Source of the DNA: an uncultured virus (IMG/VR IMGVR_UViG_3300017747_000864) | Lineage: Duplodnaviria > Heunggongvirae > Uroviricota > Caudoviricetes | IMG/VR virus record: IMGVR_UViG_3300017747_000864 | Direction: 5' to 3' (one strand) | Length of the DNA: 64,000 bases | Part shown: piece by piece, positions 8,804-28,656 of the stretch | How the letters are laid out: every line of letters starts with the position of its first letter | Position numbering within the stretch: the stretch's first letter is position 1 | Notes under the pieces: model-generated | Seen by the model: the letters and a program-made list of their open reading frames with translations, nothing else | What the model was told of the DNA's origin: nothing | The model's database searches: none | Made by a program: the position numbers and the translations under genes

Positions 8804-11245
8804 TTAATAATACTCACGTTTTCGATGGTACATAGGCTCATCGTCCTCATCCGACCGTAGACGAATGAACCCACCACGCCTGTAACGCAGCAATGCCTGC
8901 GTCGTAGAGTCCACCAAGTCATCATGCTCACCAGCAGGGAATGCTGCGATCTCTTCGATCAATTCCTCCGCCCAGCGAGTATTAGGCACCCAAACGTGGC
9001 CGCTGGCAAATATGTCCGTAACAGCATTCAACCGAGCAATTTTGTCGTTGCCTTTACTAGGCGTGAACTCCTGCACGGGGATGCCCATGGCACGTAATTC
9101 AAAGATCAAAGGTGAGCCAGCAGCCTTGGCCTCAACGATCAGGCTATCGACCTCCCACTCCTTGAACTCCTGATACGCCCGTTGCTTGAGTTCCGGGAAC
9201 TCCATGCGCTTTTTGAACGCATTGAGCAGAATGATGTTCGACTGCGGCTTGCCCGTATCGTCGTCTTTATAGAACACCCCCCACGTAGTACACGCAGAGT
9301 AGTCAGCACGCTCGCTCTTCAGGAACGCCGTATCCCAAGACTGGATAATGAACTCGCAGTGGGGAGGGCTGTCTTCCTCCCAAATATGCCACCATTCCCG
9401 TTTGATGATGGCCGAGGCGTCTGAAGTTGGCTGCTGCTGATACTGGGCTTGCCACTTACTATTAGGTAGTTCTTCGCGCAGTGCCTCTAGTTCTTTCAAA
9501 CTCCAGAACTCAGGCCACAAGGGCTGGCCGCTGGGCATAATCGCGGGAAACTCAATCACCTCCCACTCTTCACCGCCCCGCTGAGCGCTGGATTTGAGCA
9601 CTTGCCCAGTCAGATCCTTTTGAGACCAGCGCGTGTTGTGGCTGATTACACCATTGGCGATAAAGTTCTCGGTACGCTCGATCTGAACATCGAAGACTTC
9701 TTCCTCGCCGTCCGGGATAATCTCAACTATCTGGTCGGTTGTTACGGCGTAGGTATTCAGCAGCTCGCCGCAGGATTTCTGGGGTCTTACCGTACCCAAC
9801 TGCGAGGTTGCAGTCGTTGCAGAGCAGCCCCCTGACGACGCCTGTGTCGTGGCAGTGGTCGATACAGAGCTTACCGTTCCAGTGGGCGCGGGTATTGGTG
9901 TCAGACGGCGGCTCACCGCAGACATCGCAGCGGTTACCACGCTCTTCAACCATACGGTTAAAGGTTTCCTCTGTGATCCCGTACTTACTTTTGATCCGTT
10001 TTGCCCGCCGAGACTCTGGAGTATAGTTTTTTCCCCGGTAGCCTTCGGACCAGCGCCACTTGTTGTAGTGCGACTGACAAAACCCGTTGATCTTTGCTGG
10101 CTCTGAACAGTTTTCTTCGGCGCAACTTCTGCCTTTCCACTTCCCGTGGTCGCCGAGAGGTTTGTAAGGCGCGTCCGGGTTCTTTCGGTGGTAAGCGGCT
10201 CGGGCTTGGCAGGGATGACAAAGTCCCGGTTTGTTTTGCGATCTTGCTGGGCGCTTGCATCCTTCGTTACTACAAGCGACATACCCGGCTTCAGGTCTTG
10301 CAATCTGGTCCATTTACGTTCTCCGTTGACATCGACGAGGAACGGATGCCTCGCGTTTGCCCGGACAAGTATGCCAGATTGTGTTCGTACTGTATATACT
10401 GAATCAACACCGTTTGACCGATGGTTAAGCACCTTTGCAGTCGTGATCTTGCCGTCCTCGTAGGTGGCTACATCATCACCCGGACGAATTTTCCTTAGCT
10501 CATTCGTAGACCCGTCAGCCATCAGTACGGGGGTATCCCCCGTCATGCACATAACCACAACAATTGCCCCACCCGGCTGCAAACGCTGCCGAGGACCAGA
10601 GGTGTACCACTCGTAGGTCTTGTCGTAGATCTCTGGGTTTACTTGAGCAAGAGCAGCCTCCTGCTCTGAGTGCGGGTCGTCAATAATTAGCAGGTCGGCA
10701 CCCTTACCGGTCACTGCACCCCCAACACCGATAGCAAAGTAGTCACCAGACTTGCTGGTATTCCACCTACCAGCCGCTTTTGAGTCAGCTTGGAGCGAAA
10801 GTTCGGGGAAAATGTCGTGATAAACCTCAGAATCGACCAGATTTCGCACTTTTCGACCAAAACCCACCGCCAATTCAGCAGTATGGGAGGTTTGGATCAC
10901 TTTTTTGTGCGGAAACTGCCCCAAAAACCACGCCGGGAGCAGATAAGAGGCAAATTCTGACTTGGTATGCCGTGGCGGCATGTTGATAATCAGCCGCTTG
11001 CACTCTCCACGGGCTACACGCTCGAAAGCAGTAGCCATAATCTTATGGTGCCTGCCAGAAATGAAGGTAGGCCAGACCTTTTCCACGAACTTAATGAACT
11101 TGGAGCGGGCCAACTCCTTCTGTTTGAGCTTTTCCAAGTGCAAAAGCTGGGCTTCCAGCACACGGAGGTCTGCCTCCGACAGCCTATCAAGCACTTTGGG
11201 GATGTCTTTAAGGGTAATCCCCGAGATTACCGGCTCTTCAAGCAC
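8804..11245 (-). CDS. terL: Terminase large subunit with an intein (about 508 aa after splicing)
   Basis: Walker A-like MPPRHTKS, Walker B LLIIDDP, RNase H nuclease SWDTA and HDDLVD; intein at residues 233-537. Confidence 0.95.
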   Translation of the reverse strand: MLEEPVISGITLKDIPKVLDRLSEADLRVLEAQLLHLEKLKQKELARSKFIKFVEKVWPTFISGRHHKIMATAFERVARGECKRLIINMPPRHTKSEFASYLLPAWFLGQFPHKKVIQTSHTAELAVGFGRKVRNLVDSEVYHDIFPELSLQADSKAAGRWNTSKSGDYFAIGVGGAVTGKGADLLIIDDPHSEQEAALAQVNPEIYDKTYEWYTSGPRQRLQPGGAIVVVMCMTGDTPVLMADGSTNELRKIRPGDDVATYEDGKITTAKVLNHRSNGVDSVYTVRTQSGILVRANARHPFLVDVNGERKWTRLQDLKPGMSLVVTKDASAQQDRKTNRDFVIPAKPEPLTTERTRTRLTNLSATTGSGKAEVAPKKTVQSQQRSTGFVSRTTTSGAGPKATGEKTILQSLGGQNGSKVSTGSQRKPLTVWLKSVVTAAMSAVSRRLTPIPAPTGTVSSVSTTATTQASSGGCSATTATSQLGTVRPQKSCGELLNTYAVTTDQIVEIIPDGEEEVFDVQIERTENFIANGVISHNTRWSQKDLTGQVLKSSAQRGGEEWEVIEFPAIMPSGQPLWPEFWSLKELEALREELPNSKWQAQYQQQPTSDASAIIKREWWHIWEEDSPPHCEFIIQSWDTAFLKSERADYSACTTWGVFYKDDDTGKPQSNIILLNAFKKRMEFPELKQRAYQEFKEWEVDSLIVEAKAAGSPLIFELRAMGIPVQEFTPSKGNDKIARLNAVTDIFASGHVWVPNTRWAEELIEEIAAFPAGEHDDLVDSTTQALLRYRRGGFIRLRSDEDDEPMYHRKREYY
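9635..10549 (-). mobile_element. Intein (305 aa) in TerL
   Basis: Starts CMTGDTPVLMADG (block A), ANARHPF (block B His), VFDVQIERTENFIANGVISHN (blocks F/G), +1 residue Thr; excision restores IVVVM|TRW. Confidence 0.93.
9723..10313 (-). CDS. Endonuclease VII-type homing endonuclease, nested out of frame in the intein
   Basis: YGIT...CDVC...LCIDHCHDTGVVRGLLCNDCNLAVG; GGAG RBS 7 nt before ATG; frame differs from TerL. Confidence 0.88.
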   Translation of the reverse strand: MDQIARPEAGYVACSNEGCKRPARSQNKPGLCHPCQARAAYHRKNPDAPYKPLGDHGKWKGRSCAEENCSEPAKINGFCQSHYNKWRWSEGYRGKNYTPESRRAKRIKSKYGITEETFNRMVEERGNRCDVCGEPPSDTNTRAHWNGKLCIDHCHDTGVVRGLLCNDCNLAVGYGKTPEILRRAAEYLRRNNRPDS

Positions 11246-26470: not shown

Positions 26471-26658
26471 GCGAGAACCGCAACATGCCCGCAGCCAGCG
26501 GCGTCGTGTACTGGCGCGAGCCGCAAGACGAACCGCCACCCAGAGGAGTGAAACTGCTCATCCTCACATCCGGTGGTGTCGCCGTTTTTGGTGATTGGAT
26601 GGACGATTCAAACTTCGTGGCGTGGTCGCCGCTGCCAAAGAGGAGGGGTAAAAGATGA
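26467..26658 (+). CDS. DUF551-like small protein
   Basis: W...EPPP.G...AWSPLP. Confidence 0.6.
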   Translation: MSENRNMPAASGVVYWREPQDEPPPRGVKLLILTSGGVAVFGDWMDDSNFVAWSPLPKRRGKR

Positions 26659-26825
26659 GCATCACAGACAAACTTGTTTTAGTAATTCTCGCTGTAGCCG
26701 TGGCAATCACCGTCGCCCTCATTCCGCGAGCGCCGAGTGACCCCTGCGGCGTGGCTGAGTTTGCACCTGACGTACCACAACACATTAAAGAGCAGTGCCG
26801 TCAACACAGGAGAGTGAAGACATGA
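26655..26825 (+). CDS. Small membrane-anchored protein (56 aa, not in ORF track)
   Basis: MSITDKLVLVILAVAVAITVALIP...CGVAEFAPD...KEQCR; ATGA overlaps at both ends. Confidence 0.7.
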   Translation: MSITDKLVLVILAVAVAITVALIPRAPSDPCGVAEFAPDVPQHIKEQCRQHRRVKT

Positions 26826-27646
26826 CCGAAACCCTTGGTGACTACATAAAAAAGCACATGATCGACAACATCAACCCCAACCACGACACCGTTAACCACC
26901 CGAAGCATTACACAAGCCATCCTAGCGGGGTCGAAACAATTCAGATCACGGAGCACCTTAATTTTTGTTTAGGCAACGCCGTTAAGTATTGCTTTAGGAG
27001 CGGAAATAAAGTACAGTCTGACGATACAGAAGATCTAAGAAAGGCGATCTGGTATGCAGAACGAGAATTGGAAAGTGTACTCGGCGGACCGAAGGTACGA
27101 GGTTTCGGATCTTGGCCGAGTGCGAAACTTAGCGACTCAGAAGATCAGATCACCCGTGCGTATCAAGAATGGGTACATGACGTTGCTGTTTTCCTCGCCT
27201 CGGATTCTGCGTTACCCGCACGTAATGGTCCTAGAAACTTTTATTTGCGAGAGGCCAATCGGTTTGGATGCCTCCCACTTGAACGGGAACCGAGCGGACA
27301 ACAGGCTAGCAAATCTAGCTTGGGAATCTCGGAGTACCAACATGGCTCGGAAAAAAGCGCACGGGACCGAGCTTCTTGGGGAGAAACGATGGTCAGCGAA
27401 ACTGACCGAACAGCAGGCGAAAGAAATAAAGTACGGGACGAAATCAATAACAGACACAGCGGCGCAGTACAAAGTATGTCGAATGACAGTGTGGCGTATC
27501 CGTTCAGGCATGAATTGGCCGCATATATAGCGCATGAGCCCCAAGAGTGGCGAAAGCGGGCGGTGTTTTATCTGTCTACGGGAGAGCCTGTTAAGGCTCT
27601 TTGGTACATCAACCGGCTGGTGAGCGAACTTGAGAAAAAACAGTAG
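26822..27646 (+). CDS. DUF3310 (T7 gp1.7-like) protein with a large in-frame insertion
   Basis: DTVNHPKHY...ETI...FCLGNAVKY..R...K...EDLRKAIWY; frame remains open across the nested HNH gene. Confidence 0.8.
   Translation: MTETLGDYIKKHMIDNINPNHDTVNHPKHYTSHPSGVETIQITEHLNFCLGNAVKYCFRSGNKVQSDDTEDLRKAIWYAERELESVLGGPKVRGFGSWPSAKLSDSEDQITRAYQEWVHDVAVFLASDSALPARNGPRNFYLREANRFGCLPLEREPSGQQASKSSLGISEYQHGSEKSARDRASWGETMVSETDRTAGERNKVRDEINNRHSGAVQSMSNDSVAYPFRHELAAYIAHEPQEWRKRAVFYLSTGEPVKALWYINRLVSELEKKQ
27054..27530 (+). CDS. NUMOD4-HNH homing endonuclease nested in the +1 frame
   Basis: ENWK...YEVSDLGRVRN (NUMOD4), H..VLETF...SHLNGNRADNRLANLAWESRSTN (HNH), AKLTEQQ...HTH tail. Confidence 0.88.
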   Translation: MQNENWKVYSADRRYEVSDLGRVRNLATQKIRSPVRIKNGYMTLLFSSPRILRYPHVMVLETFICERPIGLDASHLNGNRADNRLANLAWESRSTNMARKKAHGTELLGEKRWSAKLTEQQAKEIKYGTKSITDTAAQYKVCRMTVWRIRSGMNWPHI

Positions 27647-27992
27647 TAAGGAACGAATCCTAAGTAAGCTAATCCGCCCAATGACGGTCAAGGAATTGGC
27701 AGCGGAAGTGTTTATGGATGCTCACCATCTTGGCAAGATGTTGCGTAGGTTCCGCAAGGAGCGTGAGGTATACATATGCGAGTGGGAGCAAGAAGATTAT
27801 CCCCGCGCTTTGTGGATGGCAGGTAACTCACGTGATAAGCCAAGACCCAAAGCCAAGACCCGCGCACAAGTCTCCGAAGCCTACCGGAAGCGTATTAACA
27901 AGAACCCAGAACGACGAATGATCTATCTGGCAAAGAAACGCTTGGCTAGAATGGAAGCCCGCCCGGATGTGGCGTCTACATGGATTCGATAG
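27630..27992 (+). CDS. Basic HTH-like protein
   Basis: PMTVKELAAEV...VYICEW...GNSRDKPRP. Confidence 0.65.
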   Translation: MRKNSSKERILSKLIRPMTVKELAAEVFMDAHHLGKMLRRFRKEREVYICEWEQEDYPRALWMAGNSRDKPRPKAKTRAQVSEAYRKRINKNPERRMIYLAKKRLARMEARPDVASTWIR

Positions 27993-27993
27993 C

Positions 27994-28656
27994 ATGACTA
28001 CCACATGGTCTTTCAGCAGTCTTAAAACTTTTCAGCAGTGCCCACGCAAGTACTTCCATATCAAGGAAGCCAAGGACGTTGTCGATAAGCCGCACGAAGC
28101 CGCGCTCTACGGCAGTGCCGTACATAAGGCTGCGGAGGATCACATGCGAGATGGAACTCCTGTCCCTAAAAAGTACGGGTACATGGAGCCGATTCTCGAT
28201 GTTCTGAAGAACATCTCTGGCGAGCGGCACTGCGAGTTGGAACTAGGGCTCAAACAAGACTTGTCCCCCTGCGGGTTTCATGCGGAGGGGGTGTGGTGGC
28301 ACGGGATCATTGACCTGCTCATCGTGGACAAAGAGAAGCAGCTTGCCCACATGGTCGATTACAAGACCAGCAAAAACGCCCACTATGCCGACACAAAGCA
28401 ACTTGATTACATGGCTGTAGCAGTGTTCGCGCACTTCCCTGAAGTGACTCGGATCAAGTCCGCACTGTTGTTTGTTGTAAGCAACGATATTGTCAAGAAG
28501 TCTCACGAAGTGTCACTGAAGCGCGAGTACATTCAACCTGCGGTAGTTGACCTTGACCGCTTGCAAAAGGCTAGGGAAACTGGAGTGTGGAACCCCATTC
28601 GTGGGCCGCTATGTCGGTTCTGCCCTGTCAAGACCTGTGAACACAATAGGAGTTAG
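27994..28656 (+). CDS. PD-(D/E)xK Cas4/RecB-like exonuclease
   Basis: WSFSSL..FQQCP, GIIDL, VDYKT, QL..Y/M, CRFCPVKTC. Confidence 0.85.
   Translation: MTTTWSFSSLKTFQQCPRKYFHIKEAKDVVDKPHEAALYGSAVHKAAEDHMRDGTPVPKKYGYMEPILDVLKNISGERHCELELGLKQDLSPCGFHAEGVWWHGIIDLLIVDKEKQLAHMVDYKTSKNAHYADTKQLDYMAVAVFAHFPEVTRIKSALLFVVSNDIVKKSHEVSLKREYIQPAVVDLDRLQKARETGVWNPIRGPLCRFCPVKTCEHNRS

Follow-up and report, generated by a model that had tools for sequence, protein, structure and literature searches.

The 64,000-nucleotide stretch of DNA analyzed here (hereafter, the window) comes from an uncultured virus of the Caudoviricetes (IMG/VR record IMGVR_UViG_3300017747_000864) and carries a DUF3310 gene that encloses a complete gene for an HNH endonuclease in a different reading frame. 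We refer to the open reading frame (ORF) of the DUF3310 gene as the host ORF, to its complete DUF3310 domain as the N-copy, and to the enclosed gene as the HNH ORF (Table 1). Pfam matched DUF3310 (PF11753) in the host ORF with 45.6 bits against a gathering cut-off of 24, and PHROGs labels the domain phrog_236, "nucleotide kinase" (E 5.5e-28), a predicted role. We take the family to be that of T7 gp1.7, for which nucleotide kinase activity has been reported, and the lactococcal SaV-like proteins. Part of this link comes from one article (PMC8306868). An alternative start of the host ORF, a GTG at 26795, would yield 283 amino acids (aa), but AGGAG lies ~9 nt before the ATG. The linker that follows the DUF3310 core is the DNA of the HNH gene read in another frame.

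Table 1. Coordinates of the features at the DUF3310 locus of the window.
Feature	Position	Strand	Description
Host ORF	26822..27646	+	274 aa; ATG start; stop TAG then TAA; from N to C terminus: resident leader, DUF3310 core, ~150-aa linker, tail, resident last helix
Mobile cassette (DUF3310 core, HNH and tail up to ...K-A-L)	26885..27601	+	~717 bp; boundaries approximate, to a few bases
Complete DUF3310 domain (N-copy)	26891..27061	+	Residues 24-80; Pfam profile 1-60 of 60, E 7.5e-12
Shine-Dalgarno-like sequence AAGAAAGG	27037..27044	+	9 nt before the HNH ATG; encoded by host motif codons L-R-K-A
Overlapped host-frame codons	27053..27529	+	159 codons; stop-free; mostly predicted disordered
NUMOD4/HNH_3 ORF (weak helix-turn-helix match)	27054..27530	+	158 aa; +1 frame relative to host
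Antisense ORF	27212..27691	-	159 aa, over the same stretch
Tail	27494..27643	+	Residues 225-274; degenerate second copy of DUF3310 core helices
Downstream ORF	27630..27992	+	120 aa; TTG start; overlaps the end of the host ORF; same arrangement in sister phage L009

The HNH ORF matched the Pfam families NUMOD4 (E 2.4e-9; 37.7 bits, cut-off 23.4) and HNH_3 (E 7.8e-7; 29.1 bits, cut-off 24.8), and its HNH residues H75, N83, N87, N96, and H103 were invariant in six alleles. By its domains and motif residues, the nested ORF is recognizable as a NUMOD4/HNH_3 homing-type endonuclease. Its best phage matches, annotated HNH homing endonucleases, were 34-36% identical over the full length, and a match in a Ralstonia phage is annotated as "DNA endonuclease I, HmuI". 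The ATG is made up of the last two bases of TAT and the G of GCA within the host codons TGG TAT GCA (27050-27058); Pfam and the coordinates thus agree with the original prediction, made from the sequence alone, which had described a complete NUMOD4-HNH ORF in the +1 frame starting inside these codons. The same prediction had the HNH gene nested in DUF3310, which holds for the gene and not for the domain: as the whole domain precedes the start of the HNH gene, that gene sits between a full DUF3310 domain and a C-terminal partial repeat.

Two relatives of the HNH ORF with other surroundings were also seen. One, a free-standing, shorter HNH gene (L023, 201-555), has nearly the same Shine-Dalgarno (SD) sequence and start (AAAGAAAGGAG..ATG, MQEEKWK), with no DUF3310 upstream, and its alternative frame closes after 17 codons. 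The other is a 368-aa "hypothetical protein" of Aeromonas phage ST4 (OR261032.1; L026, 304-1410), which carries a related HNH_3 and helix-turn-helix in frame at residues 146-242. Its HNH-homologous stretch begins at about residue 100, with ~100 unassigned residues before it and ~125 after it, and this protein is a candidate for a further host gene with a nested endonuclease.

To follow the arrangement across relatives, we compared 12 HNH-bearing alleles for which DNA was available: the window, L004, L005, L006, L008, and L016-L022. L004-L008 and L016 came from two IMG/VR scans, whereas L017-L022, as well as the free-standing L023, came from a metagenome scan with the HNH alignment alone, so that these six alleles are unbiased with regard to openness of the host frame. 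Duplicates were dropped, namely L003 and L012 (the window's own contig), L013 (the L004 contig), L014 (L006), and L007 and L015 (protein identical to that of L006). The alleles fall into about six lineages, with HNH identities to the window of 94% for L017, which forms one lineage with the window, 66% for L004, 59-61% for L005, L008, and L020, 60-63% for L006, L016, L018, and L019, 57% for L021, and 46% for L022. L023, with 26% HNH identity, served as a free-standing control. The protein database holds a further ~18 clusters of the long-frame protein (P0001-P0015, P0017-P0019); these were not counted as a test of openness because the length filter (150-480 aa) would hide truncated forms.

In all 12 alleles, the host frame runs uninterrupted from its start codon to its stop codon, the DUF3310 and post-HNH parts share one frame, and the HNH gene lies one base downstream of it. 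A purine-rich AAAGG, AAGGG, or AAAAG together with TGGTATG was likewise present in 12 of 12. When the HNH codons were permuted synonymously, none of 5000 permutations left the host frame open for any of six alleles, 6.2-11.2 stops being expected; with the window's background codon usage, the same permutation gave zero or one open frame in 5000. For a stop to appear in the host frame, an HNH codon must end in T and the codon after it must begin with AA, AG, or GA. At these stop-creating third positions, T was found at 0 of 401 sites in the 12 alleles, compared with 413 of 1052 other third positions where T is possible. The corresponding count was 56 of 226 in six free-standing HNH controls (L023-L025, L027-L029), which have 3-23 stops in that frame, and 827 of 2495 (33%) in 24 other long ORFs of the window. 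The longest stop-free run in that frame of the other long window ORFs was 33-93 codons, with the exception of the terminase, which has a nested endonuclease of its own. The other alternative frame of the nested alleles contains 9-17 stops. By three independent measures, openness of the host frame is beyond chance. The original prediction had drawn attention to the absence of stops over the 159 overlapped codons in the window and had proposed stop avoidance across related HNH alleles as a check; the permutations, the T counts, and the 12 open frames bear it out on both points.

Codon-position identities show which frame is constrained as protein in each part of the gene (five alleles for the N-copy and the overlap: the window, L004, L005, L006, and L021, all 10 pairs). 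In the N-copy, read in the host frame, identity was 0.67-0.93 at position 1, 0.84-0.96 at position 2, and 0.44-0.60 at position 3, and this domain is evidently under strong purifying selection at the protein level. In the overlap, read in the HNH frame, the values were 0.59-0.84, 0.72-0.87, and 0.38-0.67. As the third position of the HNH frame is the most variable, the HNH frame is the one under amino-acid selection in the overlap. Moreover, this position, which is position 1 of the host frame, is as free as third positions in the N-copy, indicating that the host frame stays open there without its amino acids being conserved.

One stretch within the linker stands out: host residues 103-125 (window 27128-27196) contain a nearly invariant motif, Q-E-W-(V/I)-H-D..V-F-(F/L). 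The motif corresponds to the HNH stretch that is most conserved, I-K-N-G-Y-M-T..F-S-S-P, read in the other frame, and its conservation may be a by-product of HNH conservation. The antisense ORF over the same region was rejected as a gene because it is not kept in L004, L005, and L006; it most likely reflects the scarcity of stops in the sense frames.

Downstream of the overlap, the constraint returns to the host frame. The echo of KAIWYAERELE noted in the original prediction at the end of the host ORF (KALWYINRLVSELE) proved genuine, being the end of a degenerate second DUF3310 core. In an alignment of 19 members, the tail follows the pattern L-A-x-(Y/F)-I-x-H-E ... R-A-(V/I)-F-Y-(L/I) ... K-A-x-W-Y-(I/L)-x-R-E-I, which parallels I-x-I-T-E-H ... 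G-N-A-V-K-Y ... D-L-x-K-A-x-W-Y of the DUF3310 core and lacks only the N-terminal N-H-P-x-H-Y motif of the latter. Over 35 aligned codons downstream of the HNH ORF, identity was 0.60-0.91 at codon position 2 and 0.17-0.52 at position 3, and conserved Arg and Leu residues were maintained through switches between CGN and AGR and between CTN and TTR codons. This codon-position pattern and these codon switches argue for conservation of the tail at the level of protein rather than of DNA. The alleles share no conserved start codon ahead of the tail, which makes read-through the simplest route to the tail.

Structure models agree with this division. AlphaFold2, run on the host ORF with the 19-member alignment, gave high confidence (predicted local distance difference test, pLDDT) to residues 24-86 and 225-274 and pLDDT values below 50 to residues 89-105 and 128-223, with a moderately confident helix at 103-125 (pLDDT 55-80); the mean pLDDT was 61 and the predicted template modeling score (pTM) was 0.56. 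Low confidence over most of the overlap between confident flanks is in line with the earlier suggestion that the overlap is tolerated as a disordered loop. The tail may also pack on the N-copy, for which modeling gives weak support.

Comparison with two relatives delimited the DNA that has moved. The DNA of the sister phage L009 matches the window exactly as far as ~26884 and then once more from 27602 on (TGGTACATCAACCG...), and between these flanks lies an ordinary 92-aa DUF3310 gene of a different subtype without HNH; the last 14 residues of the host ORF match this HNH-less gene. L017 shows the converse pattern, with 83-100% identity to the window per 60-nt bin from ~26873 to ~27600 (core ~93%) and 33-52% in both flanks. 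Because the two comparisons agree on the boundaries, the moving unit is a ~717-bp cassette. It is joined into the resident gene between the leader (...N-P-N-H) and the last helix (W-Y-I-N-R-L-V-S-E-L-E-K-K-Q). On this sequence evidence, the cassette has moved horizontally and replaced the core of a resident DUF3310 gene, leaving a footprint such as homing with co-conversion, or an exchange of cassettes between phages, would be expected to produce. HNH-less alleles thus exist, as the original prediction of an HNH insertion implied, but what moves is the whole cassette of core, HNH, and tail rather than HNH alone.

DUF3310 genes also occur with endonucleases in other arrangements. DUF3310-NUMOD4-HNH-tail proteins in a single frame were found in the database (P0022 and P0056, whose HNH part lacks a separate start codon) and in IMG/VR (L032, 1330-2355), and P0021 is a DUF3310-Endonuclease_7-tail protein in one frame. 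In all four, the endonuclease is followed by a partial DUF3310 repeat. P0067 is a GC-rich form that looks out of frame. P0124 (119 aa) is an HNH-less allele of P0022, to which it is 92% identical with an exact gap of 160 residues and RR on both sides of the gap. In its AlphaFold2 model (pLDDT 77, pTM 0.67), the gap site lies in the sole low-confidence loop, residues 66-82, and the tail is confidently folded. The pair and the model indicate that a DUF3310-plus-tail protein can exist without an endonuclease and that the endonuclease occupies a surface linker. A counterpart of the post-HNH segment in intact homologues, another check that had been proposed, is therefore at hand in the last 14 residues shared with L009 and, for the in-frame variant, in P0124.

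Single-domain DUF3310 genes vastly outnumber the endonuclease-bearing and DUF3310-plus-tail forms (3559 short matches, of which 15 were inspected). Six candidates for the latter (L035, L036, L039, L058, L067, and L085) turned out to be plain single-domain genes in which one region had matched both halves of the query. P0016 (151 aa) and P0020 (297 aa) are tandem fused DUF3310 duplications without an endonuclease, P0016 repeating even the N-terminal MAKQSK leader; these may be relics of cassette insertion or loss.

Taken together, the reading that we regard as probable is that two products are made from one DNA, the host protein being read straight through the endonuclease DNA without splicing. 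The ~717-bp cassette would overwrite the middle of a resident DUF3310 gene and bring with it a complete DUF3310 core, the +1-frame NUMOD4-HNH gene, and the tail as a C-terminal partial repeat of DUF3310 helices. Translation of the endonuclease would use an SD and ATG of its own that are embedded in the invariant K-(A/G)-x-W-Y codons of the host, while the host protein would be translated through in the other frame, yielding a mostly disordered linker of ~150 aa that joins the DUF3310 domain to the tail. If the tail is needed as protein, selection would remove every stop from the host frame, and neither RNA nor protein splicing would take part. Under this reading, the read-through protein is presumably both made and functional, and the HNH enzyme probably cleaves HNH-less DUF3310 alleles.

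Splicing is the obvious competitor. Phage HNH genes are commonly carried by group I introns, a point also discussed in PMC11855218, and an unorthodox group I-like or other self-splicing intron could carry the HNH ORF, in which case the open host frame would be incidental. In the host frame, the overlap begins with AERELESV, which does resemble the resident INRLVSEL after the right junction. A likeness of this kind was put forward as a possible sign of an intron in the study describing the ShiLan domain, an HNH hidden in another frame of a mycobacteriophage DNA methylase gene (Arsenault, Gosselin, Gogarten, Genes 2025, PMC11855218). Here, however, the likeness is forced by the other frame: the resemblance of W-Y-A-E-R-E-L-E to the last DUF3310 helix arises from the NUMOD4 N-terminus M-Q-x-E-x-W-K read one base earlier, and the free-standing L023 in that frame likewise gives ...Y-A-R-R-K-M-E-R-F. 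Rfam 15, searched over 26500-28000 at E<=10, returned no intron family and only one chance-level row for a long non-coding RNA. An intron would also give no reason for the lack of stop-creating T's across alleles down to 46% identity, as stop avoidance would lack an explanation if the stretch were removed from the RNA, and in the in-frame versions P0022 and P0056 the HNH has no start of its own. We therefore consider an intron very improbable, and conservation of the frame suggests that the RNA is not spliced. An intein fares no better: Pfam at E<=0.1 gave DUF3310 alone in the host frame, and the junction residues, WY|AE and KAL|WY, are not intein-like, whereas the terminase of the same window, a positive control, does score Intein_splicing. 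The Pfam result and the junction residues uphold the earlier statement as regards intein ends; as regards intron elements, the Rfam negative agrees with it within the reach of those covariance models. Least credible of all, to the point of being negligible and already contradicted by the relatives, is a compositional accident with the tail as a decaying remnant of a former target gene. The 159-aa ORF on the antisense strand could be cited in its favor, but that ORF is not retained in relatives, the tail is conserved as protein, and neither the permutations nor the T counts, set against 33% T at such sites in other window ORFs, are compatible with chance.

Two further explanations retain translation across the overlap and assign it another role. 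The frame might be kept open for translational coupling or anti-polarity, such that ribosomes must reach the stop at 27644 to start the downstream gene; consistent with this, the host stop is overlapped or directly adjoined by the next ORF in the window, L009, L005, and L006. In L004, however, the next ORF begins 11 nt past the stop without overlap, the downstream genes differ between cassette-bearing phages, and coupling does not call for a tail that is under protein-level purifying selection with codon turnover and folds confidently in two models. We regard coupling as improbable, although less so than an intron. A programmed +1 ribosomal frameshift near TGG TAT GCA could instead make a DUF3310-HNH fusion the main endonuclease product and the read-through protein a by-product, a scheme to which the in-frame proteins P0022, P0056, and L032, with HNH lacking its own start, lend some plausibility. 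It is at odds with the SD-like purine run and ATG conserved at fixed spacing in all 12 alleles, neither a slippery site nor a stimulatory element was identified, and it leaves stop avoidance in the host frame and the conserved tail unexplained; we give it as little credence as the intron. None of these alternatives explains both stop avoidance and protein-level conservation of the tail, as unspliced read-through would.

Several observations nevertheless weigh against unspliced read-through. The N-copy alone is already a complete DUF3310 by Pfam, which leaves the need for an attached tail unexplained. When the N-copy (residues 20-90) and the tail (222-274) were modeled as two chains, the interaction prediction score from aligned errors (ipSAE) was 0.52, compared with 0.00 for the best of three controls, which is rated "weak support": of 157 solved complexes, 116 attained the ipSAE mark, as did 2 of 215 mismatches, but scores of <=0.60 were obtained for only 18 of the 157 solved complexes and for both passing mismatches. 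The two-chain runs agreed in at least 98% of contacts with a partner pLDDT of at least 76, the chains being parts of one polypeptide. Fold searches matched the helices of the N-copy and tail only to generic three- and four-helix bundles (Z <8), and Foldseek with the P0124 model against the PDB gave no match at E<=0.001. The all-alpha dUTPase 2yay, considered as a fold relative, was dropped since its VIA-align Z scores of 5.6 and 6.7 with the two models are not above the background of helical proteins. No HNH-less allele with a tail of the window type was found by word search with residues 215-274, by phmmer, or with an IMG/VR tail profile. The phmmer search, with the last 60 residues against 1.84 billion representatives, gave six matches, two of them true and both HNH-bearing, and four of them long unrelated repeat proteins; the tail-profile scan yielded, among the matches listed, only the L004 contig and one ordinary DUF3310. 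A look-up of RNA sequencing runs containing this sequence listed none. In addition, atypical introns can escape the covariance models of Rfam, and several of the 12 alleles are close kin and hence not 12 independent lineages.

A more specific and clearly more tentative possibility, which we think rather unlikely as it stands, is that the cassette is a self-contained "target-replacement" homing module, with its own, presumably cleavage-immune DUF3310 core to the left of the endonuclease and the partial core repeat to the right. Since DNA homologous to any DUF3310 target would flank the endonuclease on either side, such a module could overwrite very diverged alleles, as in the window, L009, and L017. 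Translation would then have to continue in frame from the right repeat into the resident last helix, a requirement that would lock the endonuclease into dual coding and force the alternative frame open. If true, this would give an endonuclease a route into a small gene that needs neither an intron nor an intein and does not kill the gene. Such a route may have evolved more than once, considering that HNH occurs both in frame and out of frame and that an Endonuclease VII form exists as well.

To our knowledge, homing endonucleases have been thought to persist in genes only by way of introns or inteins, or else to lie between genes, and we know of no published system other than the ShiLan domain for a third route, in which the endonuclease lies in a gene, is read through in another frame, and is tolerated as a loop. 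Free-standing endonucleases engaged in intronless homing are exemplified by the seg and mob genes of T4 and by mobE, which splits nrdA in phage Aeh1. Like these elements, the HNH ORF is a selfish gene of HNH type in or next to a conserved phage gene, presumably spread by gene conversion together with its flanks; they, however, lie between genes or split the host into two pieces, whereas here the HNH ORF lies wholly inside a host that is one continuous ORF rather than standing as a gene of its own between host genes. The phage group I intron endonucleases related to I-HmuI share the NUMOD4/HNH_3 domain architecture of the nested HNH, but Rfam detected no intron RNA around the latter.

The closest parallel is the ShiLan domain, together with the insertion in Pacc40 gp60 that the same article presents as a second case (PMC11855218). 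ShiLan resembles the DUF3310 locus in having an alternative-frame HNH ORF, no internal stop in the host, no intein or intron signature found, an in-frame translation predicted to be a loop or disordered, a disjunct, homing-like distribution, and an insertion start whose host-frame reading resembles the sequence past the insertion site. At the DUF3310 locus, we correspondingly found a nested alternative-frame ORF, a stop-free host frame, and HNH-less homologues with a disjunct distribution. The two differ in host and enzyme, a methylase and an HNH with zinc fingers in ShiLan as opposed to DUF3310 and NUMOD4/HNH_3/helix-turn-helix here, and in initiation, for which a GTG start and leaderless initiation were proposed for ShiLan (PMC11855218), whereas here a canonical SD and ATG are embedded in a host motif. 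The DUF3310 case is further distinguished from what PMC11855218 reports for ShiLan by a moving unit that carries a full replacement host domain and a partial repeat, by sister forms in frame, and by codon-level stop avoidance quantified across alleles down to 46% identity. The strategy of out-of-frame read-through is thus already published (PMC11855218), whereas the host gene and the HNH family described here are new. Literature searches, with subscription journals outside their coverage, returned no endonuclease nested in DUF3310.

Our findings suggest that the DUF3310 locus is a second such system, independent of ShiLan and better constrained. It would add a canonical ribosome-binding site concealed within a host motif, alleles with and without the endonuclease, a cassette moved between unrelated flanks, and a clean codon-level signature of selection that keeps the overlapping frame open. 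This signature, the lack of T at stop-creating third positions, could be used in a systematic search for such elements. The overlap would also offer a naturally occurring overprinted linker of 150 residues whose evolution is free apart from the avoidance of stops.

The same genome contains a second overprinted endonuclease, as the original prediction had stated. The large terminase (8804-11245, minus strand) carries an intein, with Intein_splicing at residues 262-536, and within the intein lies an out-of-frame ORF of 196 aa (9723..10313, minus strand) with a Recombination endonuclease VII domain (Endonuclease_7, E 3.4e-20), the terminase frame remaining open. According to a 2026 preprint, a cyanobacterial dnaX intein with a homing endonuclease in another frame parallels this arrangement (bioRxiv 10.64898/2026.09.14.751524). 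The dnaX endonuclease ORF, like the HNH ORF, overlaps an open host frame, but its carrier is a true splicing intein, while the DUF3310 host has no splicing domain.

The window also encodes DNA polymerase A, an SNF2 helicase, a DUF927 protein, and a Cas4-like nuclease. Megablast against phage records found no DNA nearly identical to the window. A match in Moraxella phage Mcat10 that seemed to reach into the overlap was discarded because tblastn had crossed three separate genes, the DUF3310 gene of that phage being an ordinary one of 78 aa. Neither Pfam nor PHROG matched the ORF downstream of the host gene, whose TTG start lies upstream of the host stop in both the window and L009. The host ORF ends in TAG TAA in the window (27644-27649), where L009 (546-569) has CAG CAA and reads through these and five more codons, gaining seven extra residues.

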